64,000 nucleotides of DNA from Amoebophrya sp. A120 (taxonomy: Eukaryota; Protista; Dinoflagellata): positions 3,777,600 through 3,841,599 of the forward strand of contig CAJINV010000003.1 of NCBI GenBank assembly GCA_905178155.1. The letters run 5' to 3'. A model generated the notes under the pieces. That model was not told where the DNA came from, ran no database searches, and worked only from the letters and a program-made list of their open reading frames with translations. Each line of letters starts with the position of its first letter. Positions within the stretch are counted from its first letter, which is position 1. This document shows positions 436-62,099 of the stretch, piece after piece. A program made the position numbers and the translations under genes.

Positions 436-3400
436 ATGTCAACTATTCCGGGAGACGGACGGCAGCATCAGCATGATCTTGCAGGCGACCCTCCAACTCA
501 CATCTCTGCTTTCAGCCTGGTTGTGCTGTTCGCGCTGTGGGTGTTTGCGCACGCATGGGGTTGCTTATTCCGTTACGTGATGAAGACACCCCCACTGCTG
601 GGCTACCTCCTGGGGGGTATTTGTTTCCGCAACGTGGGCGGTGCCGCACTGCATTTCGCACAGGCGAAGGTGAGGCAGTCACTAATACATGACAACAGCA
701 GGACAACGACCAAACCTGGCGGCCCCCCAGCGGCCGGAGATGCGGAACAAGCGAGCCAAAACCTCACTTTGATTCCCGCAGATATTTCGTCCCTCGTGCG
801 CACGCTCGGGCTCGCCACTATTCTCATGATTGCGGGATGCGAGATCGACTACCAGAAAATCCGGCGGATGGGCGGCATGTGTCTGCGGCTGACCGTGCTT
901 CCCGGCGTGAGCGAGGCCTTTGCCGTGGCTCTCGTATCCATGTATGTGTTTGGGTTTTCCCTCGCCTGGGGCCTCGTGCTGGGCTTTATCCTGGGCGCCG
1001 TGTCCCCTGCCGTGGTGTGCGGCGGTATGTTTGCGCTGCAAAAGCGCGGGTACGGTGTCGCGAAGGCGATTCCCTCTCTGGTCGTGTGCGCCGTATCAAA
1101 TGCAAAAATTTCTGGGTCTGGAAGATTGCGAGATTTGTTATGCTGATCTGGCATGGCTCTTGAATCTGTATTGCGTGGCCACAAACAACCTCTCTCGCCT
1201 GTCATGCAAAAACGCAGTTTCTCATGCGGAATACGCAGCACCGAAGCACGAAGCAACTTGTCATGCTTGGCGGCGCATTACAGTGCATTTGTATATTGAC
1301 TGACTTGCATCACAAGTTTCCAGACCCAGACATTTTTGCATTTCATACGCCGCGAGCTTGGACGACGTGGTTGCCATTTATCAAATGCAAAAATGTCTGG
1401 GTCTGCAAGAATGCAACTTGTGATGCTGCATTTGGATGTCTAAAAGATTTGTGTTGCATGAGCAGCAAAAGGAGTCTCACTTTTGCTACGCGGACAGGGC
1501 ATTTGTCATGCGGAATAGGCATCAAGAATCCCTGAAAAAACCTGTGATGCTAGGGCATGCATCACAGACATCATGGCTCATGCAAACCGTGCGTGGCATG
1601 TCTCAAAGTCAAAACCCTCCAGACCCAGACATTTTTGCATTTTATACCATTTCCGGGTTCACCACCTCGCTCGGCGTCGCCATGAGTGACATCATGCCCG
1701 CGGACGAGAGAAACCTTTTGCGGACCCTGCTGGGGCTGCCGCACGTACCTGCGCATCCCAGTTCGCACTTCTACGCGATGCTGCACGGGCCAACCAATTT
1801 GCTGCTCGGCGCGGTGCTGGGCGTCACTTTAGGTGCGGCGTTCGCGAAGCTTTGCCAAACGGACGCAGCGACGGCATCTTCATCATCATCCCGAGGGGGT
1901 CATGCAACCTCTAGTTCAACTAGCTCCTTTTGGGGTAGCGGTTCTTTCTTCGGCCGCAAGCTCCTGGCTGCCCACGCGCTCGCCCGCCGAAACGAACTGC
2001 TGCAGTCGTCTTCGTCCCGGGGACGGCGGGGCAGGAAAAAGCTGTTGCCGAATATGGTGGGGAAACTAATTTCTAATCAAAGCGACAGCTACGATCAGGG
2101 CTCTGTGTTCGGTGGTGGCCTCGGGGATGACTTGCGTCGGAGCAAGACGCCCGTGGAGCAGCTGGCGCTTGGATCAGCACGGGAGTCACGGCAAAAGATG
2201 CGCTTCATTCCGACTGCTTCTAGCCCCGCAACATCTCCAACCGGAATGGAAACGCAGCTGCCCGGAAGTGGTCGTGGTGCCGCAGAGGACCCAAACAGCC
2301 TGGAAGAGAGCAGTAGAATAACGACCGAGGTTGTAAATAATCCTACGAAGCCTGAAAATTTTCTCTCCGCTATGGTATTCGCCACTGGGTGCGGCGTTGC
2401 GATGCTCGCAGTCCACTTCCAGTACTCGGGCGCGGGGTTTCTCGCTTGTCTGTTTTTCACCTGTGCGTTTTCGCAGCTGTCGAGGCCAAAAAGTGCAACT
2501 TTGCACGGCACAACAAGTTCTAAAACCCCAGTCGGTACTAGTACAGGCGATTTTCCAGACGACGGAGCAGAGGCAACGGACCGGCACGACGAAGGAGCAA
2601 CGGGCGCTTATAGTGATTCCGGAGCGGACAGCGACGACAACAGAATAGCCATGCCCAGTCAATCGCCGACTGACGGGGGCAGCGGGACGAAAAGAGTCAT
2701 GTCGTTTGAGCTAGAAGACATCTCGCTTGCGGCGCCGAGTGCGGCGAGCGATGAGGCGAGCCACTCACTCGACTTGGATCTTCGCACAAGTAGTCCAAAG
2801 GGCGCCGCAAGAGGGGGATTTGGAACAGAAGAGAAAGACCTCCGGGTTGTACTAGGTGATACAACTGCAGTCCCCTCGAGGCAGGGCGAGGACCACTCCG
2901 TTTTCGACGTGATGGGCGCATCTCACGCCGCCGAGGACGCGGATGCGGATTTTTCGGTGCGCGAGTTGATGTTGGCCGCTGGCGCGCAGGACTACACGCC
3001 GGTCACGGCGGTGTGCCACAACCTCAGCCGGATATGGGACTGGTTCGCCGAGCCGCTGCTTTTTGGCGTGATTGGTACGGTTGTGGACGTGCGAAAGCTC
3101 CACTTTCCCACCCTTCCGAAGGCGACCTTTCTCGTCCTGTGCTGCGTGTTTTTCGTGCGCGTTCCCGCCGCCGTGTTCGCGACGAGCTTCGGCAACCTGA
3201 GCTGGCGGGAGCGGATTTTTATCGGCCTCGCGTGGATGCCGAAAGCCACGGTGCAAGCAGCCTTGGGAAGCGTTCCGCTCGATAGGCTCCATAAGATTTT
3301 GGAAACGGAACGGAGTCAAGGCGGCGGAAAGAATAGCTCTACTCCCGAGGTGGAGATGAAGGTCTTGCAGGAGTGGGGCGAAGTGATCGTGACGACCGCG

Positions 3401-3604
3401 GTCTTGTCCATTCTTCTGACGGCGCCAATAGGTCTGCTGGTCGTTTCAAAGCTCGGACCCATCATGCTCACGCGGGACGGCGATCCGTCTGCGAGTAGAA
3501 GAACATCTGGCGCCGATCATGGGGCTGTCGAGCTATCATACGCTGACAACGTCGAAGTAGATGCGACGGCCGCCTCGAGTAGCGACGCAATAGCGCGGGA
3601 GTAA
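436..3604 (+). CDS. NHA2: Na+/H+ antiporter, NHA2/SLC9B-like; exons 436-1093, 1353-1378, 1652-3604 (878 aa after removing two TIR elements)
   Basis: Motifs LGFILGAVSPAVV, EPLLFGVIG, AWMPKATVQAALG, AVLSILLTAPIG. Removing each insertion plus one TSD copy rebuilds VVCAASLDDVVAISGF, the NHA di-aspartate motif, in frame. Confidence 0.9.
1094..1347 (+). mobile_element. TIR introner, family A copy 1 (non-canonical intron)
   Basis: TATCAAATGCAAAAATTTCTGGGTCTGGAA ... TTCCAGACCCAGACATTTTTGCATTTCATA; 5-bp direct repeat CGCCG at 1089-1093 and 1348-1352. Confidence 0.93.
1379..1646 (+). mobile_element. TIR introner, family A copy 2
   Basis: TATCAAATGCAAAAATGTCTGGGTCTG ... CAGACCCAGACATTTTTGCATTTTATA; TSD CCATT at 1374-1378 and 1647-1651; contains an in-frame stop near 1421. 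Confidence 0.93.
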
Positions 3605-4131
3605 AAGCAATTTTGCAAAAATACGCTGTGCATCTTCGGATCAAAGTCCTTTTGTTTTCGTCGCCCTCGCGTCATGTCAAGGATCGCTGTGTTTTCCAAT
3701 TTCGATCTACAAGGCAGAGAGACGGTTCGGAATAGCACTCATGCTTACGACGTTGGAGATTGCACCGAGCGATATTAACAAGGAGAGGCTATCTGGCATT
3801 CAGTACTTAGCTTATATATTTCAAAGAAGTTCTCTACTAGTCATGAAACAAAAATACTTTCTCGCGCGTTTCGTTGCTTCGTCGTGAATTTCGCGGTCGC
3901 TTTCGAAGTTTTTTCATTTTTCCAAAATCGATGACCGTTTATTTTAGAAACGAAAAAATGTAACAACGTTAGTTGTACCTAAGTCCCGTATAATTGAAGC
4001 CCAACGCGCTGGTGCTCGATAAAACGCCATGCCCGCATCTTCGTAAGGGCGTTTAGTTTCTACCTGTTGCGCCGTTTTCCGTGCCGGATACAACTGCCGT
4101 AGTAGTTTCGAAAGCGCAGGGTGGAGTAGAG

Positions 4132-7100
4132 ATGGATTTCGACTATGCACTGCAAATATGTCTGGGTCTGGAAAGTTGGAATGTTAAAAAGGAATGGCAG
4201 ACGCACTGCAATACGCAGCTATGCATGACAAATTTTTTGGCTGCCATGTGTTACGTATCACGCATGGCACACTGCGTTCTTGCGTGACAGGTAAGAGTCC
4301 CTTTGCGTGCCTATGCAACACAGACTCTCGAGTCATGCCAGACAAGCATGACAAAACTGCACTCTTTCAGACCCAGACATATTTGCATTTGATATCGACT
4401 TTTCGCGCACGATGGACTCGACCTTCGAGTCGTCGGTCTGGAGCGAGCTGCCGTATCCTGAGTAAAAACGTCCCCACCCCATAGTTGTCATGCAGATTTG
4501 CGACTACAGGAAGATTTGTATATGCGCATCTCCATGAGAGGCATTTCCAATCGCGTTTTGGGATTTGTAATGCTGTGAACGGGATGAGCAGATGGATTTG
4601 TGATGCGGCTGCACTTGCTAAACTGCACCACACTAAGGACTGGAATTTGTCATGCGTTGCTCCCAAAGCTTCTGGGTTTCTGTTGCTACGTTCCCAACTT
4701 GACTATGGGGTGGGAGCGGTTTTACATATGATATGCCGCCGATTGACCTCAAGATGCGGGGTTGGCACCTCTCCGACGATCCTGCTTGGGGGACGAGTAG
4801 GAACGAGGCCATGCGAAAAACCGCGATTAAGCCTTCCGTATTCCAACAAGTGGCACAGGTACTTATGTTTAAACTAAAGGTTGTTAGATCGAAGACGTTT
4901 GTGCGTCGATCTTCGGAAAGAAAAAGAGTCCTCAACAGGGATGGAGAGCCTATGCTACAGTAAGTACATGAAAAAGACTTTGAAAATGAAAATCTTCTTT
5001 CCGATCAACTCTAAAATCAGTCTTCTTCCTCGACGAGACGGGGGTCGCGCTCGCCACCGGGAGGTCGACAGAAGTCCCCGGATTTTGTGGACACCAGCAA
5101 GGAAGCCTCCGTAAAGTACGACAATCTAATGGCCGCGGACATGGTAGACGACCCCTCTAGCTTGCGGCGATACCAGCTCATACCTGATCCGACCCGGAAG
5201 CGGCGCTTTCCGCCGAAATCGCCAAAGCACCGGACTCCCAGGTTCGTCGTCTTTGGAAAACCAGTTCTTGCGCGGATTTCTTTTCTTTGACAGTGTGGAA
5301 CATGAAAGTGAAACTACAGTAGCTCCTGGCACACTTCGAGACAAAAAAAAAACTGCCATCAACCGCATAATATTACAGTGACTTCCTGAACTACAAGAAG
5401 TTTCAGGACACGCTGCGCCGCAACAACCGAAGCACGCAGCTCACTGACACGAGCGTGGATTCGGTGTTTTCCACTTCGCCTGGCCCCCTCGTGGAGGAGC
5501 GCGCCTACACGATTCACCCGGCGGATACGTATCCCGGCGAGGTTCACGGGAGCGGAGGGCGGAAGTCGTTGCAACGGAAAAAAACCTTATGGATTGCAAA
5601 TATGTCTCGGTCTGGAAACTTGTATTGCTAAAAGCGAATGATAGACGCACTGCAATACGCAGCTATGCATGACAAACTTTCTGGCTACCATGCCTTACGT
5701 ATTCCGCATGGCACGCTGCGTTTTTGCATGACAGGCAAGAGGGCCTTTTCGTGCCTATGCAACACAGATTCTCGAGTCATGCCAGACAAGCATGACAAAC
5801 TTGCACTCTTCCAGACCCAGAAACTTTTGCATTTGATAAACCTTTGCCAGCTACAACACCGACTTGCAAGGCGAGGACGTTGGAAACCGAGGTACCGCTC
5901 TTGGTTTTTCGATCTTTTTCATGTTGAGCGTACTGCTTTTTCAACATCAGGGTTGTCGACACCACGCGCCTATCTACTTTCTCAGCTGCATTTTGGTTGC
6001 TTATTGGTTTAAAGTTAGTCTCGCATCATCATCACCCCTCTACATTTCAGACCCGCAGCGTATGCTTCCACCGAAGAAAAAATACGAGAAGGAACTTCTG
6101 TCCTCGACGGAGAGTAGTTACGTTGCACGTGCAAACGCGTCAGAGCGTCTCAAGCAATCGTATCGATACTTCTTTCTTATTTGAGTTTGTCAACATAAGG
6201 TACAAATACAAGACCACGAAACATGAAATGGAGTGTTATAGACTGAATACTTCTGTATAGTACCCGCATCCATTTGAGTCTCGTTTTGTAGTTGCCACGC
6301 TGACGTGCAACAGGTACGATCCGACACGCAAGCGGTCTCCGCGGGCGTCGCCGCTGGCGGGGCCAATCGACTATTCCAAGATCGTACGAAATATTCCGGA
6401 CGGCAAGCCGACGGTGGATGAGCAACAACAGATGATTGACCAAATGATTCGGGAAGCGGAGGAAGCGAACCGGCGCGCCAACGAGGACCCCCGAGCCGTC
6501 TCCAACGCGATGCCAGGTCCCCCGCCGGTGAAGCGAAAGCAGAAAACGCAGCAAGAGATTGTGCGGATGGGTATGTTCGGGAACGACAAGGCCGGCCGCG
6601 CGAAAGCGGAACGCCACGTGAAGGCCGCCGTGCTCGGGGAAAGTAAGCAGGGCTCATCGTCTGCGGCGTCCGCGAAGACGGGTGGGGGAGCCTCGTCTTC
6701 TTCCTCCGAGTCGAAAACCGTGACGCGTTCGCCCTCTGCAGTGCCCGTGACCACTACATCAAGTACTTCTAAATCGGAGAAGAAAATAGTAACCTCCGGA
6801 ACATCAGCTGCTTCCAGTGCAGCTGCCTCCGCACCGAAAAGCAAAAAAAGCGAACGCAAAAGCAGGAGAATAGCGGAGCCGGAAGATGTTTTGACCGTGA
6901 TATCCAGCGAGGTTGCCAGTGACGTCATGGCGGACGTGTTCGGCGCGGTGGAAACGGTGCTCAAGCCCGAGGAGCCCGAGCCCATGACTCGCAACCCTCT
7001 GATAGAATTGATAACCGGAAAACCTCCCCGAAGGCTTTCGAGGGGTGGCAGCGCGGGAATTTCGCAAACGGGCCGCGCGTGGACGCGTGGGCCACAAGGG

Positions 7101-10100
7101 GCCCGCCTTCCGTCTGGGGCAGTTTCTTTTTGAGAAACAACCTGCCAACATTCCGTCCAACAATAGGGGCAAGGCCCTTGCTTTCTGACTTCCGACAAAT
7201 CTTCATCGTTGAAAAGTGAGAAGCTACGGACTTCTCACTGCGTTTCCACTGGTCTTCTAGAAAAGGAGTGAAAAGTCAGCGACTTCTCGTTTCTGAAGCA
7301 TTTTCATTCTGGAAAAGTGAGAAATCAGTGATTCATTTGTCACTTCTGAAAAGTTTTCATGTTGAAAAGCGAGAAGTCGCTCCGCTGACTTCTGAAAAGT
7401 TTTCATTTGGGAAAAGTGAGAAATCAGTGATTTCTCACTCGGTTTCTCGAACAATCCGAGAAATGGAGTGGGAAAAATGTGATTTCTCACTTTGCAAGAC
7501 TCTCACTCTGGTCGGAGTCGCGTTGACTCTTCCCAGAGTGAGAATTTTTCAAAAGTGAGAAATCAGTGACTTCTCACTACTTTTCTCGAAGGTACCCGAG
7601 CGCCAAATTTCTTCGGGGCTCGGGTACCTTCGAGAAAAGTAGTGAGAAATCACTGATTTCTCACTTTTGAAAAATTCTCACTCTGGAGTCGGACTCCAAA
7701 AAGGTTTCCAGCCGTCAAGATTTCGCGAGAGTGAGAAATCACTGATTTCTCACTTCTTTTCTCTAAGCCTTTCGGGATGTGTAGGCGACTTCTCACTCCG
7801 AGTGAAAAAGCCAGTGAGCTTTAACTTGGTTTTTTGAATGTCTTCGGGAGGCAGCGCGAAAGCTCGCTGCGTGCGAAAAGTTAATGGAATGTCATTCCCC
7901 CACTTCTCCAGCCTATTCGTAAAATGTAGCCAATAGGAGCGGACTTTTTACTCCCTTCCTGAGGGGACCTCTGGGCGAGCCCGAAGTGCAAAGCCAGCGC
8001 GCTTTCGCTTTTGTTGTCAGCGCGCTCGCAAAGTCAGCCGGCTTTGATTGGGGGGGGATTTGTTTTGTGCCGTCGATCTTCGTGCTGCTGCAGAGGTTTG
8101 CGAAGCTTCAAAAGAACTACTAACTTACACTAGCGCGCCAAACTGATCGACTTGGCGCGGATTCTGTTTCTCGAAGGCGTCCGGAGAAATTTTCCGGCGA
8201 AAAGGAGGGGGCTTTTGCGAGTCATGGCGGACGTGTTCGGCGCGGTGGAAACGGTGCTCAAGCCCGAGGAGCCCGAGTCTGCGCCGACGTTGGAGGGCAT
8301 CAATGCGCTGCTGCCGCCCTCCGAGCGCTTCACCTTTGGAGGGTCAAGCTCGTCTTCAGCAGCTTCCTCTGATGAACTCGAGAACTACGAGCTGCAGCCA
8401 GAAGTGCAGCGACAGACAGGGAAGATCACCAGCCAAGTAGAAGGATCCGGTATAGTCCAGTCTTCAACAACAAAGCCGCTGCAAAAGAATCAGGTCGTGC
8501 CACTTCTGGCAGCTGACCCGCTCGACCCGTTGCAGGCGAGCAAAACGAGCACCGACTTGCCCACGATCGTGGCTATTTCCGAAGACGTGGAGTACTACCA
8601 GGAGGGGGATGACGGAGAACTAGAGGAAGAGAAACGCGAACTGCCCAAGTCCACCACCGAGCCCGGGCCCGGGCACTACAACGTGAAGCCGATGTGGAAC
8701 CAGGATGGCCCGACCTGGAGCATGGCGCCGTGCCCGGCCCGGGAGCTGCTCCGACAGGGGGCCACCAACTGGCTGCTGAAGCCCAGCTTCGACCTGGGCA
8801 ACCCGGGACCGGGCCAGTACGGCGACGTGGCGGGCAACAAGATCCCCTCGAAAGCGACCATCTACATGGGGATGAAGCCCGAGTTGTGGAAGCCGGAGGT
8901 GAACGACCCCCAGATTCCCACCTCCACGCACCTCTACAAACCCGGCGGCCCCTATTTCACCATCAAGGGCAAGTTACCGGCCATGAAGTCGTCCGTGACC
9001 TTCAGCTTTGAGTACCGCCCGGGGAAGGAGTTCTACGACAATAGCAAGGTAGCGTTCGATCATCGGGAGTTCTTGGATGAGTTCGGGTCCTACTACAGCC
9101 TGGATCTGTCGAAGGAAGCGAGCCGGTTCCTCTCGCCGGAGAAAACCCGCCGCAAGTTGACCGCCAGCGAAATGGAGCAGGTCCGGAAGATGGAGGCCCG
9201 GGCGCAAGAACGGGTCCGCCACCTGATGGAGGTGGATGTTGCGGGGGAGAGTGGATCAGCATCTCGGATGCTCGAGGCGGGTTCGTCCACCATGCCCGCC
9301 GGAGCCGCGAATTTGTCCATTGAGGGCACCGTGGGGAGTAGTTCTATCGCAACAGAACAAACCCTCAATAACCTGGCGTCCTCCGCGGAACTACTCCGTG
9401 GTACGAGCACGATGAATCCGGTCGGATTCAGCAAAAACGCAACTTCTTTGGAGGACGAAACGCGGGAGCCCGAGGCTTCGGCGACCACCTCAAGGGCGCT
9501 TTATGACACCTCGATCGACAGCCTGGAGTCCAACACGTCTTTGATGTTCCCACCCACGACACGCATAGACCAGCTTCGCAAGGAGCACTACATGAAGACG
9601 AGGTACTTGTTTGAAAGAACGACCCATTTATTGGGGACTCCAAGTTGCAGCTGTGTTGGGCAGACATAGTGCAACTTTTTTTTTTGCATAAATTACAGGC
9701 TTGAGAGTAGAGAGAGTGGATGAAGTTTCTGTTCCGATATTAAAGTAGAACAAATCGTGTACACAGTATAATTTATTTCTCTTTCCACCGACCTACGAAA
9801 AGGTATAAGCCTCCGTCGTACACGCAAATTGGGTTGACGGCCCGGAACCTCGACCGGTACTCCATCGCGGGGAACGACAAGCGCACAACCAGTTTCAACA
9901 CGCGGCCGACCAAAAAGCGGATGGACGCGGACCAGACCAACTGGTACGTGCAGAGCAGCGACTGCCTCATCTCCGCCGGCCTGCGGTACGCCCACCCGAA
10001 CAATTGGGTCGCGGACCCAAAGAAGGGCTTCACCCTCCTCGGCCGCGACGAGAAACCGTTTGCGCTCCCGACCGCGGGAAAAGAGGTGCCGCTGCGCGAC

Positions 10101-10563: not shown

Positions 10564-12332
10564 GCGTTCGCCATGAAGGTCTCGACGACCACTCCGCCTA
10601 TGAAGTTTATTTTGTTTTTGATACACGTCGCGTGCTGTTCGCAATATTTACCCTGGAAGGTCTGAGGCAGATGTTGCATGGTGCCGGCTGTTGCTACCGG
10701 CAGAGCCCTGCGGAGGAACGTCTGCCGAGGTAGCGCCGACTTCCGTCTACAGGCCCCCAGGCGCGGGGCCCGCAGGGCTGCGCGCTCAGGCCCGGGACAA
10801 AGACCGCGCGCTCCTTCTCGACGAGGCTGAGCGGACAGAGCTGCAGCGCGGAAAAACCTGCCCGGCGGCAAGGCCACGGACCGCGCCGGGCCGCGTGCTC
10901 TGGCGTCCTAATGGCGACCCGATCTGTGCCGGCCTTCTCCTGGGGGGATCGGCGGCAGAGACGGGCGACAGCAGCGCGGGCACCCTGGCCCGCGCGGCCC
11001 CTCGGCCTGCCTGGCCCCTCCGCTGCCTTCTCTCGGATCGCCGTCCACTCAGTTGCACAGAGCAAGAGCCAGCAGGCCCCCTGGCAGCAATCGACGCTGG
11101 AGAAATCGGCCAAAAAGCTTCCGGCCTGTTAGCGGCCTGCCTCGCGCCGTTCCTCGGCAGGCCGCGGGCTGCCGCCCCAGACGGGAAGCCTGCGAAGCGA
11201 AAACGCCCGCGCGGCAAGGACGAGCCCACGCGGCACGCACAAGACGGAACCTCAGAAGCGGACGCCGGCGCCTTTCCTCGACAAAAGAACTCCTGCCCCG
11301 ACGTAATTCCGAAAACCGCCACCAACTCCGGCCCCTCGGACAGCAAAGGCCGGCGCTTTTGTGGATTCAGGTCGGGGCGGCAGTTCTGGAAACTGTCCCC
11401 CAGCACGACGGCCGCCAGTTTCCGCCCGTGCTGTGTTTCGTTTTCACGCTTGCGGGGCCGGCCTACGCCTGCGCAATATGCGCAGGCACATGAGGCCCAG
11501 AAAGGAGGCGCCGGCCTCCGCATTCGGGCCCCGCGAGGAGCGCCGCGATTCCGGGGGAAAGCCGGCAGCCGGAAACGGCGAAACCGAGGGACAGCCGTCG
11601 GGATCTCGATGCAGAACCCCGGTCCCGCCATATTGGAAGGGGACTTGGTGCAGCCCAGGAAAGACCAGAAGCCGTTCGCCTCCGATTATTTTGAGAGAGA
11701 ACTCAGAAGCGGGGCCCTGACCGCGGTCGATCTATCCCCGGCGTTGGACGCGATCGGCCCGGACTGGCGAGGTCGTCAGTCTCACGAGGCCCGCAGCACT
11801 GCGGTAGCCGCGTTTTCTCAGAAAATGCCCGCACCCAGCCCGCGGGCGCGCCGTCTGCGCTCGTGCCACAGACTTGGCGGGGAGTGCCGCGGCCGCGCGC
11901 CTGCGATGGCGCGCTCGTGTCATTAGACATCCAGGGGGCACTCGACTCCGTGCGCCACTAGTCACCCGTGGGGGACTGCGCCACCAAAGCCGTGCCGCCG
12001 TACATCCGGCCGGCCCTGTGGTCTTTCCTCCGTGGGCGATGTTTCCGCGCCCGTGTTGCCGGCGGCCACAGCACGTGGCACAAGATCCGCAGCGGCGTCC
12101 CGCAAGGCGGGCGCCTTTTCCCCTGGCTGTGCAGCCTGTGCCCCGAGTTCCTCGAAGTGCGCCTGGAGGGTGTTGCCATCATCATCATCATCTACGCCGC
12201 TTGTGCCTGGAGGCACAAGCGGCGTTCGCCGTGAATGATGGTCTCGGCGGTCACTCTGCTTATAAAGTTTGTTTTTGATACCCGTCGCGTGCTGTTCGCG
12301 CATCCAGCAATATTTACCCTGGGAGGCTTGAG
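10564..12332 (+). mobile_element. Degenerate non-LTR retrotransposon RT fragment flanked by ~100-110 bp imperfect direct repeats (10564-10666, 12222-12332)
   Basis: Remnant motifs FRPCCVS, AVDLSPALDAI (xDLxxAFD-like), SFLRGRCFRARVAGGHSTWHKIRSGVPQG and IIIYA (YADD-like); frameshifted and GC-rich. Confidence 0.75.
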
Positions 12333-46859: not shown

Positions 46860-49010
46860 ATGTTTCGCCTAACCAATTTTGTTGTCTTTCTTGCCGTCTT
46901 GGCGGTCAATACGGTGGACACTTTTGCGCGGAAACTGACGCAGACCCCGCAAACGCGGACCTACAGCAGGTCGTGGTCGTCGTCGTCGTCCTCTGTGTCC
47001 AGTTCTACCTCTACCTTCAACTACGCGAACGGCCGCTCGACAGAACACAAGCACGAGGACAAGCAGAAACGAACCAGCGACCAGGTCAACGATCAACCGC
47101 CGCAGACGACGCGCAAGGAAAGCGAGAAATCGACGGACAAAGTGGACGGTGTGAAGACCAAGGAAATCGCGGACTACGAGAACGCCGCGGGCGGATTCAC
47201 GTTGCCGGAAGCCTGCGCCAAAGCGGTCGACAAAGCGCACGAAGAGGATCGCGCCGACCACTGTGACGCTACCTACATCGGTGACATCGCTCCGGACCGG
47301 GTCAATTGTGCCCAGGAGGACCTGGCGAACTTGCCCCATGCGACCGACAAAAATTGGATGTATTTTGTTTTTCGATAGAGCGAGGTAACAAACCCAAACG
47401 AGAACTTCGCGGTTGAGTTCTCATCCGGCCGGCCGGCCGGATGAGAACTCAACCACATCAGCGGCGGAAATCGACCGGCTGGTCGTCCTGGTCAATTGGC
47501 CCGCCATTCGCTCGGGCGAAAGGGGGGGGGGCGGCCTGCTGGAGACCGACGCTTCCCTCACTCCACTTTCGCCGGGGGCCGTGTGCAACACAAAAACGCT
47601 ACGCGCGCCTGCTGTGAATACAGAGAAGCTACGCTATGCAGCGGGGCAGAAGTTGGAAAATTTTAAAGGTGGCGCATTGTGCGCGCCCGCCGCGGGCGCG
47701 CTTTCATAGTTGGACTGCGCTATGCCTTTTGGCTTCTGGGTGGAATTCGAAAGAATTGAATGCAAAAACATTCGCGGGGCTCGCAAACGCAATAGGCAAA
47801 ATTTCGCGGGGCGCGCAACGCGCGCCCGCTATACGTTGCAATCGCCGGCCCAGAAAGCGCGTCCGCGCGCCTCTCCGCTGGCTCATGCTTGCTTCGGCGC
47901 AACAGTTGGCAGATGCGCCGGATCCGGGTCGGACGCGCTTCGCGCGTCCACCGACTTGCGTGATGGGAGGCGGGGCCTCGCTCGGCGCGCCGGGCAACCA
48001 ATCTCCGACGCGCCGCGCGCGCTGCCCTTTGTTTCTGCCGGCGCCCGAATCCTGCGGCGCGTCGGGCTCCAAAGCTGCCCCCACCCGATAGCAGGGACAA
48101 TGCAAATGGCCTGGGCCGCGCTTATGTGTGCCTCCGCCGGGCTACTGGCGCCCTAGCAATCTTTATCGTTTCCCACACGCGAAGGCGGCGCAGCAGGATG
48201 GCCCGCGCGCGCAAGTTGTACGCTGTTGCTTTGCTTCCTGGTGGGGTTCGTCGGCGCCCGGCCGCAGCCGGCATGGTCACTCAGCCAGCGCTGCGCGCCC
48301 GCGTTGGGCTGTGCCCCCATCCTCTGGGCCCCCAGGCTTATCGTCTTTTCCGGCGACTCGCAGTAGAAGTAGCAAACAACGCAGCTTCTGCTTCTTGGCT
48401 TTAGGCACTTGCCGCAGCTTTTGCATGACAAAGCTCGGGCTTTTTGCGTAGAAGTGAAACTGCGCAGCTGGGGGGTGACAATCAAGAAGAAGAGTGAGGC
48501 CGTCGACCAGGAGGGAAGAAGGGGACCCGGACGACCGGCCGGCCGATTTCAATCCGCCACAGATGTGGTTGAGTTCTCATCCGGCCGGCCGGCCGGATGA
48601 GAACTCAACCGCGAAGTTCTCGTTTGGGTTTGTTACCTCGCTCATATACTTCTTCGAGATTTGTTTTTGTTTGTCGAAATCTACAACTCTGAGACTCACG
48701 TAGTCGGGTTCGACATTCATTTTACACCGATAAATAGAAGACGGCTTCGACATTCGCAAGATAATACTACAACAGGGCCACCTGCGACAGCGAGGTCCGG
48801 TTTCAGGCTCCGCCGCCGGCTTCGGCAGTCTCCGCGACCGTGGATGTGCCGGACGCCCCCGCGGAAGCAACTGCTGCGGATTCTACCCCCGGCAGCTTTG
48901 TGCAGCAGAAATCCCGGTTGGTGGACATGACGCTGGAGGAAATGGCGGAAACCGACGGCGAGCTCGAGGAGGAGATGATCGCCAGACTGCAGAACGAGCT
49001 GCAGTTGTGA
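46860..49010 (+). CDS. Secreted hypothetical protein; exon 1 ~46860-47360, exon 2 ~48765-49010; its intron carries a TIR element
   Basis: Signal peptide MFRLTNFVVFLAVLAVNTVDTFA; open frame YYNRATCDSEV...LQNELQL* after the element. Splice sites not resolved. Confidence 0.55.
47378..48643. mobile_element. Non-autonomous DNA transposon with perfect 82-bp TIRs and 3-bp TSD (ATA)
   Basis: 47378-47459 is the exact reverse complement of 48562-48643; ATA at 47375-47377 and 48644-48646; GC-rich non-coding interior. Confidence 0.93.
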
Positions 49011-51823: not shown

Positions 51824-53975
51824 ATGTTAGAAGTTCTGAAGCTGTTGTTTGGTGAAGAGAAGCAGACGAGCAGCCTGGAAAAACTCATTCCAGCTTTCTT
51901 TCGCACGGATGCCGAAGCAAACGCGGAGTCAGCGCACAATCGAGCGGTAGTCGCGACTGCTGGAGCTATCGCAACGGCGACTATACTTCTCGCTGCATTG
52001 CATAGGTACAATTTTATCAAGGCGAAAAAAACCACCAGAAACAGATTAGAAGACGACAATCATCAAAACAGCGACTCACCAGAAAGAAAACCGCGCAAAA
52101 CCGCATGGTTTCTCACGGAGCAGCTGACGCGCGTGTCAGTGCGCGACCTTGGCGCGAAACTTTTTTTCCGCCAGAGAGACTCGCGTCAGAGGCAAAGCCG
52201 CTTTTCAACCGCGGAAACAAATGAGTCCCCGATCGTGTTCGACTTCAAGCCGGGTACTGCGCTTCTCGCGGGTCCAGCCTACGCCGACCCGGACGCGAAT
52301 AACCCGGTCGCTTACGTACCACCCGCAGGTTTTCGGGTCTACGATTTCCTCTCCAAAGTGGCGTTTCCGAATCCCTCGTCGGATAGAAGAAACCACCGCC
52401 TGATGAACGACAAACAAGCTCCCTTTTTCATCTGCGTCGACAAAGCTCTCGCGGGGGTGGAATTGGAAGACGAGGTTGAAGCCGCGGCACTATACGACCG
52501 GTTCCAGTTCCGTTTGTCCTGGATTACTGCAGTGAGAACTCTCGCGGACGCTCTGGACGAGAAGCAGATTCTAGCGTTTCTCGCTACGGGACTAGGCTTC
52601 GCGTACGACAAGACCAAGCCAGCACGGGTGAACGTCTGGGAGTATGTGAAAGCGATGCAGCTGGCGCACAACTACTTAGTACTGTTCCCATCAGCGGTTG
52701 AAGGAGTTGCTGATGCAGGTGATACTGCCGCTACACCAACAGCGACGCGTACACAGACTCTGCCTTTGGTGCGAGTGGACTTGACGTACGACACCTGGGG
52801 AAACATCAAACAAAGTCTGCGCGCCGGGCGGCCTCATTTGGTGCTGCATCCGGACGTCGAGGCGCGAAGGGATATGAGCGAAGTGGAAAAACAGGCCCTG
52901 CAGCTAGAGGCGATCATTCACGAATACGCAGACAGGTATCCTACGCTACAGCCGACAAAAGAGGGTGGACTGGGCGACAACGCGAATATCTGTCTTGCGA
53001 ACTTCGTGAAGCAGAATGTTGATAATGAAACAAACGCTTCTCTTGGTACAACAGCACCTGCTTCCCCGACGAGAACTTCGCTCACAAGAGAGAGGATCCC
53101 AGCCGTAGCCGCCACCCCACCGCGACGGCCGTCGCTGATGCGGGAAGAGTTCGACGTGCCAGAAAGTGCTACCTCGGTCTACGGTTCCTTCGTGGACGCT
53201 GCGAAGTCAACCGACGCGCTGACGAAATTCCGAAATCTTTCCGGCAACAAACCGCTGAAGAAGCTGGGGAGAGTGTTGACCCTGCGGGAGATCATCTACG
53301 ACGTCGTGGGTAATTTCCACGACATCCAAGACTACGAGGACAAGGCACATTACCTGGCCGCGGCCTCGACCGACGGCGAGCGGCAGGCGGTGATTAACGT
53401 ACTGCGGGGCGTCGAGTGGGGCGAGTTTTTCGGCGTGCTGAAAACCATCGCGAAAAACAAGACCACGGGTGTATGGGAGCGTCAGGATTGAAATCGACAA
53501 AGTTGAAATAACTTGTAATGCATAAAATCGATACCAGTTAGAAGCCCAATTACCAAGCGGCGCATGACAAATTTTGGCACCGTCTAAGTCCAGTTTGTCA
53601 TGTTGTTTAGGGACAGAAGGCGTCCTTTGTCATGCTACTTTAGCAGCTGCATCGCAGACCCCAAACAGGCTGACAGTCGGCCTTACTTGCCATCCCTGCA
53701 AGAGAGGCACTTCATGCCTTGCAGTTTATGCATGAGAAATCATTTCAACTTTGACGATTTCAATCCTGACGCTTCCACAGGGCCGTGCAGAGCCGATCGA
53801 ACGGGTGAAAATGATACGAGAACTGTTTGCGAAGCACGTCACGGATGACAGAGACGAGAAAAGAAGAAGGCTGGAAAGAATGTCCAAACATGGAGCCACC
53901 CATAGCTGTATCAGTTTCATCTGTAAGCTAGTCCATGCTTTGGAGCCTCCCATGGCCACATCTTCAGACAAGTGA
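51824..53975 (+). CDS. Hypothetical protein with N-terminal TM segment; intron 53471-53780
   Basis: 555-codon ORF; removing the TIR intron joins KTTG|GRAEPIERVKMIRELF in frame to the stop at 53975. Confidence 0.7.
53471..53780. mobile_element. TIR introner, family C, with GT...AG ends
   Basis: GTATGGGAGCGTCAGGATTGAAATCGACAAAGTTGAAAT...GCATAAA versus TTTATGC...ATTTCAACTTTGACGATTTCAATCCTGACGCTTCCACAG (~55-bp imperfect TIR). Confidence 0.88.
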
Positions 53976-56538: not shown

Positions 56539-57472
56539 AGGCGAAAGGGGAGTTGGGGAAAAGTAAAAGTTGTTCCTCTTCGAGAATACAGTACCAGTGT
56601 CTTAGTTTCTTACAGTTTTCTTACAGTCAGTGGCAATAAAACCCGCGGCTACTTGACAATTCTTACAGTTGGTATAGCGTGAAAAACACAAATCAAAACG
56701 TGAAAGGTATAGCGTGAATCTAGCAATAAAGTAGCCCTATCAATAGCATGGTAGCGGATATTAGCGTGAATTCCCTTAACTGGCGTTTCTAGGAGAGCGT
56801 AGACAGTAGCTTTTAGCAGAACAAATGCACCCGAAATGACAAGGAGTGGTGGTGCGCATGGGAAATATAAATGTTTCTGTCCTGGATTGCGCAAAATGAA
56901 CCCGGATCAATAGTTTTCTTTTTGCTCCACGACACTGCAGGGACCATTTTGACGAATGAACTAAGTGCAAGTGTTGTAAAGCAAAAGCGAAAGAAACAAT
57001 GGATCGAGCGCACGAAAAAATCGGTGACTTTCGTTCACAGGGAATGATTCGGAAATTTTTTGTTCCAAGCGAGAGTAGATTCGTACAACCTCGTACAACA
57101 TGTGGATCAAAATCAGACATATTTTCAGAACAAAACACTTCGTAAATGACAGAAAATGTTCGAATGTCGAGGCTCGTTTACCATTCGATTTGACTTTTTT
57201 CACTTTCATCTTTCACAGGAACAGTTGCCTCCCCACGAAATAACGCTACGTACCCTCTTGAAGATGACAACATATCCAGAATGACTTTTTTCGAGTGCTG
57301 TCCACTACATTCTTTCAGATATTTTACACCAGAGTTCAGGTAGGCACGTTTGCGGTCATCTCCTGCTCCTGGAGATGACGCAATTTTCCTATCCAGTTCA
57401 TTTCCCGTGAGTATTACAGCTCAGACTTGGAGAATTTACCGCAATATTGAGTAAAAAGCTCCTCTGCCAACC

Positions 57473-59002
57473 ATGTCGACGGCGGGCATCACGTTGAAGG
57501 CCACCCAGGCGGATGGGTTTTACTTTCCGCCGGAGTTCGACCCGCAAAAACACGGCTCGATCGACAAGTTTCGCCGGGCCCAGGGGTTCGAGCACGCGCT
57601 CGGGAAAAACCGAACGAAAAACCTGCACAAGGGTATTCTGCAGATCCGGTTCGAGATCCCCTTCAAAGTGAAATGCTGCAACTGCGGCAACTTCATCGGC
57701 CAGGGTACGCGGTTCGACGCGGACAAGAAGAACGTGGGCCACTACTTCACCACCCCCATCTACGAGTTCCGGATGTACTGCGGGGAGATCGTGGACATCA
57801 GCCAATCTGTGAACGGCAAAACCCACTGCAACCAGGAATGGGTGATCCGGACCGACCCGAAGAACTGCGACTACGAACTCGTGTCCGGGTGCGAGCGACC
57901 CAAGGGACAGAGCGGGTTTCGCAGCGCGCACGAGATGAAGGGCGTGGCGGACGTCGAGAAGGTGACAGAACTCGACCCTCTTTACATGGATTTAGACGCG
58001 CGACGCGAAATGAAGAACGACCCCATGTTCCGCCTAGAGAAGCTCGCGGAGCTGCAACAGCAGAAGTTCGCGAAAGCGCACCCAGAGCTGAACTATCTTC
58101 CAGCCGCGAGGCCGCAGGTGCAGGACGCGGCGTCTGTCACAGGAGGTGCAGGAGCTCCTTCAGTAACCACGATGCCCTCCTCGTCTTCCTCAACGACAAC
58201 AAGGAGAGCGATGAGCAGGCAAGAAGACGAGGACGATTTAGACGAGGCCGGGACCATGTTCGACCCGAATAACCGTGGCGTGGACGATTTAGACGAGGCC
58301 GGGACCATGTTTGACCCGAATAACCGAGGCAGGATGGCGGGAGCCGGCGCGCCACATCCAGATGACGACGAGCACATTCTGCTCACGAACAAAGATCGGC
58401 GCGAGAAGAACGCGCACCTGCAGGAGAGCATGCTGAATTGCCCGGTGGAGGCGATGCGGAACAAGCGGGCAGCTCCGAAGATGACGACCGAGGAGGCGGA
58501 TCAGCTGCGGGCACAGGAAGCGTCGTTGCTGGGTCCGCAGGAGAAGAGGCGGCGGGCAGACGCGCACTTGCAGGACTTGTACAAGTTGCGACACAAGACG
58601 AATCGCAGCGACTTTTCCGTGAACTCGCAGATGCGCAAGATGTTGCGCACGGACAAGAAGAACGACAAGGCCGAGAAGGATCTCATCGCCCAGACGGGCG
58701 GGATCGCGGGACGCAGCAAGATTCTGGCGCTCGCGAACGCGCAGCTGTCCGGCAACGCCTCGCTGATTGGCCAGCTGAAGCAATCGCGAAATGCACCCGA
58801 GCCCGCGTCGGGCTCCGCGCGGCCAAAGGTGTTCAACGAGCGGCTGCAGTTCGAAAAAGACGTCGAGCGAAGGAAGGTCCTGAACAAGGACACGGTTTTG
58901 CCGCGGGCGCAACAGCGGTCCGGGAACTTCGGAAAGATGGAAGATAAATTTGCGCTCTTCAAGGCGTGTCAGTCCCAGATCGGACGCGATCGACGGAAAT
59001 GA
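57473..59002 (+). CDS. CCDC130: Splicing factor YJU2B/CCDC130 (CWC16 family)
   Basis: FYFPPEFDPQKHGS, GILQIRFEIPFKVKCCNC, TRFDADKKNVGHYFTTPIYEFRM, IRTDPKNCDYELVSG, DPMFRLE. Confidence 0.9.
   Translation: MSTAGITLKATQADGFYFPPEFDPQKHGSIDKFRRAQGFEHALGKNRTKNLHKGILQIRFEIPFKVKCCNCGNFIGQGTRFDADKKNVGHYFTTPIYEFRMYCGEIVDISQSVNGKTHCNQEWVIRTDPKNCDYELVSGCERPKGQSGFRSAHEMKGVADVEKVTELDPLYMDLDARREMKNDPMFRLEKLAELQQQKFAKAHPELNYLPAARPQVQDAASVTGGAGAPSVTTMPSSSSSTTTRRAMSRQEDEDDLDEAGTMFDPNNRGVDDLDEAGTMFDPNNRGRMAGAGAPHPDDDEHILLTNKDRREKNAHLQESMLNCPVEAMRNKRAAPKMTTEEADQLRAQEASLLGPQEKRRRADAHLQDLYKLRHKTNRSDFSVNSQMRKMLRTDKKNDKAEKDLIAQTGGIAGRSKILALANAQLSGNASLIGQLKQSRNAPEPASGSARPKVFNERLQFEKDVERRKVLNKDTVLPRAQQRSGNFGKMEDKFALFKACQSQIGRDRRK
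58231..58330 (+). repeat. In-frame 51-bp tandem duplication (DDLDEAGTMFDPNNRG x2)
   Basis: Copies start at 58231 and 58282 and are nearly identical. Confidence 0.92.
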
Positions 59003-59489
59003 TATATAGATGTTTTTTTCCAGCACAAGCGACAGTATTTCTTGACCGATTCCTGCCTGCTGCGCCCTGGTGGTGTGCGACAGGAGAGGCGGTGTTACCA
59101 AACTGGTCTTTTTTGTTACCCTGTGTTGACAAGAATAGAAACGAGTTACAACAGACTACCCCGGCGGTTCAGTTATGTACAAAGTGCAGGTCACCAGGAC
59201 TTGTTTCAATTTTGATGCTGTCACAGCGTTTTCTAGACCAAGGGCTGTTCATTGGTTGTTTTTGTCGGTGAAAGGAGCGATCAGTCGTGGCTGGCTGACC
59301 CAACCTGGATCTTCATGATATGCATCGGTAGCGTATCTGGAAGAAGATACGAGGGGAAGAAAAGCGATCACGATTTAATGATGAGCAAAGCTAGATCGAG
59401 GTCTCTTGTTTGTTGCCGAGGTGCTGCAAGTTCCGTGACGAGTGCGTGTGTATCGTGCACATCAGTATTTCATGTTGCTCCTCAATTCC

Positions 59490-60028
59490 GCGATGCATTT
59501 CCTGACCCTCGAGCCTTTTTCGTGCTTGCAGTAGGTCAAGTAGCCATCGCAATACTATTTCGTGAGTTTTTTCTGCAGATTTTCTATGACCAGAGGTTTC
59601 ATCTGATACTTCCACGTCTGCACTGCAGATCTCACTACAACTGTGGAATTTGTTTTTTATGCGCCTCAATTTGAATTTATTTCGCGATGCATTTCCTGAC
59701 CCTCGAGCGGATTGTTTGCTTGCAGTAGGTCAAGTAGCCATCGCAATACTGTTTCGTGAGTTCTTTCTGCAGATTTTCTATGACCAGAGGTTTCATCTGA
59801 TACTTCCGCGTCTGCACTGCAGATCTCACTACAACTGTCGAATTTGTTTTTTATGCGCCTCAATTTGAATTAATTTTGCGATGCATTTCCTGACCCTCGA
59901 GCGTATTGTCTGCTTGCAGTAGGTCAAGTAGCCATCGCAATACTGTTTCGTGAGTTTTTTCTGCAGATCTTCTATGACCAGAAGTTTCATCTCATACTTC
60001 CACGTCTGCACTGTAGATCTCACTACAA
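59490..60028. repeat. Intergenic tandem repeat, 194-bp unit, ~2.8 copies
   Basis: CGATGCATTTCCTGACCCTCGAGC at 59491, 59685 and 59879. Confidence 0.92.
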
Positions 60029-60394
60029 TTTCGGAATGAACAAGATGAGGAATCAAGAATAAGATCAACAAATGGATCTTTTACACAGAAACGAGCGATC
60101 AAGGCACACTGACAGACAGCATTTTGGATCCAAATTTTACTGCAGCTCCGCCATGAAGCGATCATGAGAGCTCCGGTTTGATGACCTTGGTCTAGTCACT
60201 GCAAAGCGATTTTTTTGTACGTGTCCCAAAGGACAAATTAATTTGCTTCTGTTCTTCAGGAATCGACATCGATTAAGGAAATAGCATTCCTTGTTTTCAA
60301 CTTGGATTTTGGCACGTAGGTGTCTCGCGACAAGACTCTCAAGAATTTATTAGTTCGTTTTTTTCATTGCATCGAGTTACCAGGAAATAAGAGA

Positions 60395-61807: not shown

Positions 61808-62099
61808 GCTGCGTGCTATGATGACCATAGTCGAGGTGGTCGGCGCGTGACACTTTTTCTAGACCTCGCTCGTACAGATGTAAAAATCAGCGAAGAAGGC
61901 TTCTCGTTGTAGTTTTTATTGCCACTGTGTTTTACGAATTGCGATACTCGACGGCACTAAAATGCACGATAAATGCCTTTGTGGCAGTGCAATATCGATC
62001 CTGAGTAGTGTTCTGTGTTTGACGGTGCTATGTGCTTTTTCTACAGTCAGAGGCATTCGTGTGTGTGATCGTGACTCCGCCAGTCTAGCACCTTGGGAC

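Follow-up and report, generated by a model that had tools for sequence, protein, structure and literature searches.

A 64,000-nucleotide (nt) stretch of the dinoflagellate Amoebophrya sp. A120 (contig CAJINV010000003.1, positions 3,777,600 to 3,841,599 of the forward strand; this whole stretch is called the window) carries introner elements, short transposon-like sequences bounded by terminal inverted repeats (TIRs) and flanked by a 5-base-pair (bp) direct repeat, inside its genes. Five of these elements, among them copies in both orientations, are absent from transcript contigs together with exactly one copy of the repeat. Since the contigs assembled from DNA keep the elements and the transcripts lack them, removal most likely takes place at the RNA level. 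We tentatively favour, with confidence close to evenly balanced, a putative dedicated cut-and-join activity that would measure a hairpin and so excise introner elements lying in either direction. The feature is real and its class is already known; the symmetry of orientation, the indifference to repeat sequence and the limits on the cut register were not found in print and are the additions made here. The features that enter the argument are these:

436-3604, + strand: host gene 1, an NHA2/SLC9B-like Na+/H+ exchanger, 878 amino acids (aa) after removal of elements 1 and 2
1089-1093, + strand: upstream repeat of element 1, CGCCG (partner at 1348-1352)
1094-1347, + strand: element 1, family A, 254 bp, reference orientation; transcript joint 1088>1348 (259 nt), 3/4 runs
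1348-1378, + strand: downstream repeat of element 1, short exon and upstream repeat of element 2 (CCATT)
1379-1646, + strand: element 2, family A, 268 bp, oriented as element 1; joint 1373>1647 (273 nt), 3/4 runs
1647-1651: downstream repeat of element 2
3953-6980, continuing past 6980, + strand: host gene 2; transcribed from about 3953, with its first in-frame ATG at 4132
4139-4143 and 4395-4399: repeats of element 3, TCGAC
4144-4394, - strand: element 3, family A, 251 bp, opposite orientation; joint 4138>4395 (256 nt), 4/4 runs
4449-4453 and 4734-4738: repeats of element 5, TGCCG
4454-4733, no strand assigned: element 5, other TIR family, 280 bp; joint 4448>4734 (285 nt), 4/4 runs
4859-5020, + strand: canonical GT-AG intron, internal control, 4/4 runs
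5242-5378, + strand: canonical GT-AG intron, internal control, 4/4 runs
5583-5587 and 5839-5843: repeats of element 4, AACCT
5588-5838, - strand: element 4, family A, 251 bp, opposite orientation; joint 5581>5838 (256 nt), 4/4 runs
5892-6050, + strand: canonical GT-AG intron, internal control, 4/4 runs
6160-6313, + strand: canonical GT-AG intron, internal control, 4/4 runs
53467-53471 and 53780-53784: mismatched repeats of element 6, GGGTG and GGGCC
53472-53779, no strand assigned: element 6, third TIR family, 308 bp, TAT...ACA ends; annotated as removed, without reads here

In the contigs assembled from four transcript runs, each of the five joints at elements 1-5 removes the element length plus 5 nt. 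All four copies described in the initial annotation, and the fifth, are missing from the transcripts as element plus one repeat. The joints are ambiguous by 5-7 nt, and the interior of element 5 (4499-4719) has zero depth in 4/4 runs. The transcript contigs, of 2483 nt for gene 1 and 1602 nt for gene 2, have exactly the predicted lengths. In the same contigs the four GT-AG introns of the + strand are spliced out and the intergenic bin 3615-3835 has no coverage, which identifies them as spliced transcripts and fixes their strand. A further joint, 1230>1307 (76 nt, side 27, 2/4 runs), was set aside as a probable paralog. Two raw RNA runs, X9 and X10, gave 10 and 4 reads, all of them partial matches to element-like sequence with other flanks; on 1094-1410 they show related TIR sequence and none matches the window exons; their source is possibly a related strain with its own element copies.

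The initial annotation had itself raised two ways of explaining the elements away, namely that transcripts retain them in dead genes or that cryptic GT-AG sites near the element ends are used. Equal-length G[TC]-AG pairs do exist within 40 nt of elements 2-5, yet they are unused: the observed joints differ from these pairs, the exon pieces run without mismatch up to the repeat, and the transcript contigs hold no cryptic GT-AG junction at these sites. Elements 1-5 are missing from the contigs. Both explanations are therefore refuted for elements 1-5 in this sample, and we give them next to no probability.

The DNA evidence comes from contig pieces of one run (X1), whose joint table is dominated by paralogous TIR joints. 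Depth is even, about 25, over flanks, introns and intergenic DNA, and the summed word depth of the element bins is about 2e4-4e5, compared with about 25 in the flanks. Taken together with the transcript joints, these depths and contigs identify the elements as high-copy, borne by the DNA and absent from mRNA. The DNA contigs 1-1121, 1618-4171, 4685-5617 and 5809-6980 reach 28-49 nt into the elements, and no branch towards an empty-site junction was present in the contigs of this run, from which rare forms would escape, as assembly loses them. Excision of internal eliminated sequences (IESs) in ciliates is likewise precise and leaves one repeat, but it acts on DNA, is bounded by TA and needs nuclear dimorphism. 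The TIR and repeat anatomy and the loss of one repeat do resemble such excision, which the initial annotation had offered as one of its two routes, and the DNA is from a single run; however, the contigs continue unbroken past the empty junction, and a second assembly also carries the elements. Moreover, infective cells derive from the intracellular stage (PMC7789003), so excised copies would be expected to be lost by inheritance. IES-like DNA excision at some life stage therefore has only a very slim chance of being correct.

The anatomy of the four family-A elements was verified as first described, including their coordinates, TAT starts, ATA ends, flanking repeats and TIRs of about 30 bp (28/30, 27/30, 26/30 and 23/30 matched positions in elements 1-4). 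A fifth element, inside the interval originally covered, had been overlooked; it belongs to another TIR family, with the TAT-N7-AAA ends in common with family A, and is also absent from transcripts. A scan for TAT-N7-AAA...TTT-N7-ATA with a 5-bp repeat matched the window 5 times and none of 30 shuffles, so that the pattern greatly exceeds chance, and the inverted-repeat motif of TAT, 7 nt and at least 3 A occurs in 5/5 elements at 1-6 kb. Copies 3 and 4 do lie opposite to copy 1, but at 74% and 77% identity they are not its exact reverse complements, as had been stated; copy 2 is co-oriented with copy 1 (69% identity over 193 nt). The elements share TIRs, a target-site duplication (TSD) of fixed length, small size and lack of coding capacity with miniature inverted-repeat transposable elements (MITEs). 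On folding, the TIR stems of all six window copies have a high predicted pairing probability; element 6 has a 63-nt TIR and one degenerate end (ACA). All five intact TAT-N7-AAA elements are within the first 6 kb, a strict scan of the other 58 kb gave none, and their distribution along the window looks patchy.

The number of equivalent registers per copy is 6, 7, 7 and 8 for elements 1-4, instead of the uniform six given earlier, and 6 for element 5. The accompanying claim holds, in that no + strand register of elements 1-4 gives GT-AG, GC-AG or AT-AC; copy 4 has a single register with CT..AC, equivalent to GT-AG on the antisense strand. That all four lie in + strand coding sequence is conditional for copy 3, which is only 12 nt past the first in-frame ATG, so that its coding status hinges on the start codon.

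Removing an element with one repeat, twice, gives gene 1 an open NHA2-like frame, and removing the elements alone breaks the frame, in agreement with the initial annotation. The double removal rebuilds a conserved stretch over both junctions. The exon at 1348-1378 contributes 26 nt net to the mRNA and encodes the conserved ASLDDVV, and the IP..DD spacing equals that of the spliced model in 116/116 homologs with the motif (119 homologs in total). The spliced translation has Pfam Na_H_Exchanger in both halves, matches NHA2 in the PDB (E 1e-20) and includes the annotated A120 protein P0002 letter for letter; two open reading frames (ORFs) of the window match, at 100% identity, proteins that carry the name Amoebophrya sp. 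A120. The frame of gene 2 is open after seven removals, and the two pieces of it that were scanned gave no Pfam family. Further along gene 2, a 1240-bp insert, in which palindromic repeats occur at 7200-7800, lies between two perfect copies of a 57-bp direct repeat (6924-6980 and 8221-8277), and removing 1297 nt there leaves an open frame of 921 codons; at this repeat three RNA contigs end at 6963, one extends about 2.1 kb and the DNA contig ends at 6980.

Further copies were collected by applying the TIR pattern to a metagenome collection (at least 141 loci, with wide flanks for 80, all on one assembly's contigs). At one locus, L019, an exon matches an A120 protein at 100% identity over 94 aa, and elsewhere there is 1 difference in 141 aa; these copies are thus from the same species or nearly so and do not represent an independent lineage. 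Pairing of ends without use of the repeats yielded 227 non-redundant elements, 219 with TAT...ATA ends, and 144 family-A calls. Among the 219, the two copies of the 5-bp repeat agree fully in 171 elements, differ at one position in 34, at two in 5 and at more than two in 9; each of the other lengths from 3 to 9 is exact in at most 4/219. TIR families of about 110, 150, 210, 260, 280 and 320 bp, unrelated to one another, have nothing in common beyond their TAT-N7-AAA ends and 5-bp repeats, which suggests that one mobilising enzyme and one removal signal may serve them all. Nested elements were not found in 7 long copies. The sole match in the viral collection (L142) lay within phage-like ORFs, had no paired TIR and was dropped as chance.

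Strand and frame were scored on 90-nt flanks, each side independently. This scorer is weak: for the window elements it was confident and correct for element 6 only, low-scoring and right for 4, low-scoring and wrong for 3, and undecided for 1, 2 and 5. Among 166 copies it was confident on both sides for 27, with strands agreeing in 23 and disagreeing in 4, and in 23/23 of the agreeing copies one repeat must go and one is kept. Orientation, called on stitched contexts, could be assigned to 163/206 copies. Relative to the host gene, family A is split 49:48, which bears out the orientation independence first proposed, and the element-5 family 11:6. Since a random strand caller would also give 50:50, two checks on the calls were made. 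Calls within a locus agree in 121/123 pairs, and in 46/46 pairs more than 900 nt apart; adjacent family-A copies, for which no strand call is required, have the same orientation in 11 cases and the opposite in 14. The element starts and ends (first and last 16 nt) are mirror images with the same profile.

If retained, only 1/163 elements could be read through, and 158/163 have in-frame stops within coding-like sequence. This bears on a further explanation, that reverse transcriptase switches template across the repeat-flanked hairpin and creates false introns in complementary DNA (cDNA). This artefact classically arises at a hairpin with a direct repeat, and the RNA evidence used here is presumably all cDNA. 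However, the host genes would then be dead, and the stop-bearing elements lie in coding-like sequence that includes conserved proteins; the zero depth inside element 5 in every run also speaks against it. A rescue by ribosomal bypass fails, as 8/20 mismatches in the repeat's complete codon are non-synonymous. We regard the artefact as very unlikely.

No splice-like base bias or sequence preference was found in the repeats and flanks of the further copies. A GT-AG register is possible in 10/132 copies (6.2 expected, p 0.09) and a GC-AG register in 0/132 (3.7 expected). The elements therefore do not behave as canonical TSD-recruiting introners: the dinucleotides occur in 0/5 window copies, and 122/132 further copies lack a GT-AG register. 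A redirected U2-type spliceosome, in which a TIR-binding adaptor or the hairpin would replace U1 and splice-site reading while two-step chemistry and the lariat are kept, is a possible explanation that we judge somewhat unlikely. It is close to a suggestion in PMC7789003, where 83/89 spliceosomal proteins and U2, U4, U5 and U6 are reported for A120, with U1 undetected, and where the inverted-repeat/direct-repeat layout is given for 15% of canonical A120 introns. Fritillaria provides a precedent for a spliceosome adapted to introns with TIRs and TSDs (PMC11282704), and the small number of copies readable as GT-AG also fits. On the other hand, with both borders sequence-blind, the ends symmetric and orientation even, the spliceosome would need a branch point on either strand, and old introns are still strictly canonical.

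Perfect repeats hide the cut point; mismatched repeats reveal it. Let k be the number of bases of the upstream repeat that are kept. Across element 6 (GGGTG/GGGCC) the annotated protein P0001 reads TTGRAE, which registers 0-4 fit and register 5 does not. This excludes k = 5, where the whole upstream repeat is kept, on the strength of the annotated protein; the A120 proteins come from a transcript-based pipeline (PMC7789003). In the L019 copy (GGGTC/AGGTC), k = 0 is excluded because it would give Glu at a site that is Gly in 117/119 homologs and Glu in none of them. Provided that the two families follow the same rule, each cut would fall within a repeat and away from the end of the stem. The insertion phases are unequally represented (82, 45, 36; p 2e-5), with the first base of the repeat at codon position 3 in 82/163 copies, and a cut after repeat position 1 or 4 would set half the introns between codons.

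An alternative that we rate as improbable is a second, non-spliceosomal deletion of introns that reads no splice sequence, a crossover of variable register within the identical part of the 5-base duplication. Here, the RNA polymerase could jump the template hairpin and the 3' end re-pair on the second repeat, or a ligation could match the repeats. The repeats of element 6 agree at positions 1-3, and position 5 is kept from the downstream one; those of L019 agree at positions 2-5, and position 1 is kept from the upstream one; and mismatches by repeat position 1-5 number 8, 7, 4, 5 and 8, fewest at the centre in these small numbers, all of which a crossover accommodates. Yet five bases would supply little pairing energy, element 6 is annotated as removed with just 3 identical bases, and 39/210 copies have 1-2 mismatches, with every position affected. 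If true, such a sequence-free crossover would silently undo any insertion, in either direction and at any site.

Several observations count against a hairpin-measured fixed cut in RNA, and some of them speak for the crossover. The RNA evidence consists of assembled contigs from four runs of one sample, for which the RNA label is a guess. The two register limits were each obtained in a different TIR family, that of L019 depends on conservation in an allele slightly different from that of A120, and both are predicted equally by a crossover in the identical repeat part. The copies with imperfect repeats also tell, in part, against guidance by stem and repeats. The repeat mismatches are 20 synonymous to 12 non-synonymous, above the prediction for a fixed cut with one neutral repeat copy (p 0.0003-0.065, depending on assumptions); this excess, which the crossover would explain, is a lead towards a variable register and not a result. 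One position-3 mismatch, in an SNF2-like gene (L011), has best homolog matches at 38-48% identity and no close ortholog among them, and ten other non-synonymous cases gave no useful Pfam match. TIR mismatches in the transcribed strand are G-U in 128 and A-C in 132, and folding favours the sense strand in just 89/158 copies; with no G-U excess and so small a fold advantage, selection on an RNA stem is not evident, which again agrees with the crossover. Finally, an AT-AC register is possible in 10/132 copies against 5.2 expected (p 0.044, uncorrected).

The hairpin-measuring activity that we favour could work as follows. From the anatomy, a non-autonomous DNA transposon would insert in either direction, through a 5-bp staggered cut, at sites of nearly any sequence. 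After transcription into pre-mRNA, the TIRs are predicted to form a stem, about 30 bp long and closed by TAT/ATA, whose geometry would be the same in both element orientations. A putative enzyme may recognise the symmetric TIR ends and make two cuts a fixed few bases outside the stem, one within each repeat copy, at 5-k nt on the upstream side and k nt on the downstream side, with k = 1-4. As the overhangs total 5, joining would restore the pre-insertion sequence whatever its letters, giving the mRNA with one repeat and an intact frame that is seen in the transcripts. The four canonical introns of gene 2 keep strict GT-AG ends and 98.6% of position-conserved introns are canonical (PMC7789003); thus, the spliceosome is not generally relaxed. 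With both borders sequence-blind and ordinary introns strict, a hairpin-measured route is favoured over a redirected spliceosome, and the putative enzyme would be a second route beside the spliceosome, as has been proposed for Euglena. Of the interpretation in the initial annotation, the transposon-intron type, the orientation independence, the loss of one repeat and the absence of splice dinucleotides stand, and the DNA route is not supported; guidance by the TIR stem and the repeats may apply.

As the initial annotation recognised, the class is not new. The elements match the introner elements of A120 described by Farhat et al. 2021 (PMC7789003), which have the TAT + 7 nt + AAA inverted-repeat motif and 3-5-nt direct repeats overlapping the borders (5 bp in the Fig. 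S19 legend), form RNA-supported non-canonical introns of about 240 nt, and for which a hairpin was proposed; the window elements are members and do not differ in kind. That paper, in the parts drawn on here, leaves the mechanism open and the border position unknown, found no transposase in A120, and gives neither an orientation ratio nor a single 5-bp length, its passages on orientation concerning genes only. TIR elements with integrase-like homology have been described in A120 (PMC12130899). Our literature search found nothing on the mechanism of removal or the orientation of Amoebophrya elements, on which subscription papers and supplements may hold data. Dataset S2 of PMC12130899 does not contain 'amoebophrya' or 'A120' as text; other supplements may bear on orientation or TSD length.

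The closest precedent is provided by the nonconventional introns of Euglena, which also lack GT-AG and have pairing terminal inverted repeats and TSD-like repeats (PMC12501133, PMC11282704). Their borders are set by spacer length from a paired motif, and they coexist with normal introns. Circles have been shown there (PMC12501133, PMC11282704). Euglena needs a CAG/CTG motif, spacers of 3 nt and of 5-6 nt, and a purine as the first base of the next exon (PMC12501133, PMC11282704), whereas the elements here have TAT-N7-AAA ends, overhangs that would total 5 nt and no preferred exon base; the N3-CDG...CHG-N5-6 motif and the purine exon start are absent. Introners of Polarella, Symbiodinium and Aureococcus share the MITE-like origin, the restoration of sequence by loss of one TSD and a phase bias, but obtain their G[TCA]/AG splice sites from the TIR or a constrained TSD (bioRxiv 2020.10.14.339549, PMC9860276). 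Some classes in Polarella and Aureococcus form introns in either orientation, with a bias to one (bioRxiv 2020.10.14.339549); in contrast, the TSD here is unconstrained, dinucleotides are lacking and orientation is even. The introns of Fritillaria borealis are likewise transposon-derived, with TIR, TSD and no GT-AG, but prefer AG-AC and AG-AT borders and are ascribed to a modified spliceosome (PMC11282704).

How removal works matters for over 60% of the introns in this organism. The options for a mechanism are narrowed sharply by the even orientation, the indifference to the sequence of the 5-bp repeat, the loss of exactly one repeat copy and a join that falls within the repeat. As about 1 in 5 copies have mismatched repeats, existing RNA-seq can map the cut offset genome-wide, and element 6, a natural marker, is the best single target for this. 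Removal blind to sequence and orientation, if true, would explain how transposons could flood coding sequence cheaply, and would be a second case of hairpin-defined splicing beside Euglena; if reconstituted, it might furnish a portable scarless intron.

Elsewhere, Rfam gave no match within the window. A 1.27-kb element at 47378-48643 has a GC-rich interior between inverted ends of about 120 bp (92.5%), in each of which there is a perfect palindrome of 44 bp; near these ends no duplication of 4-11 bp was found to flank it. A GC-rich 1.7-kb stretch at 10564-12332 lies between imperfect direct repeats of about 110 bp (75%) and is possibly another mobile element; a similar stretch begins near 62000. 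At 57455-59002 there is an apparently uninterrupted gene for a Saf4/Yju2-family splicing factor (Pfam E 2e-37), and at 59485-60066 a 194-bp unit is present in three tandem intergenic copies.

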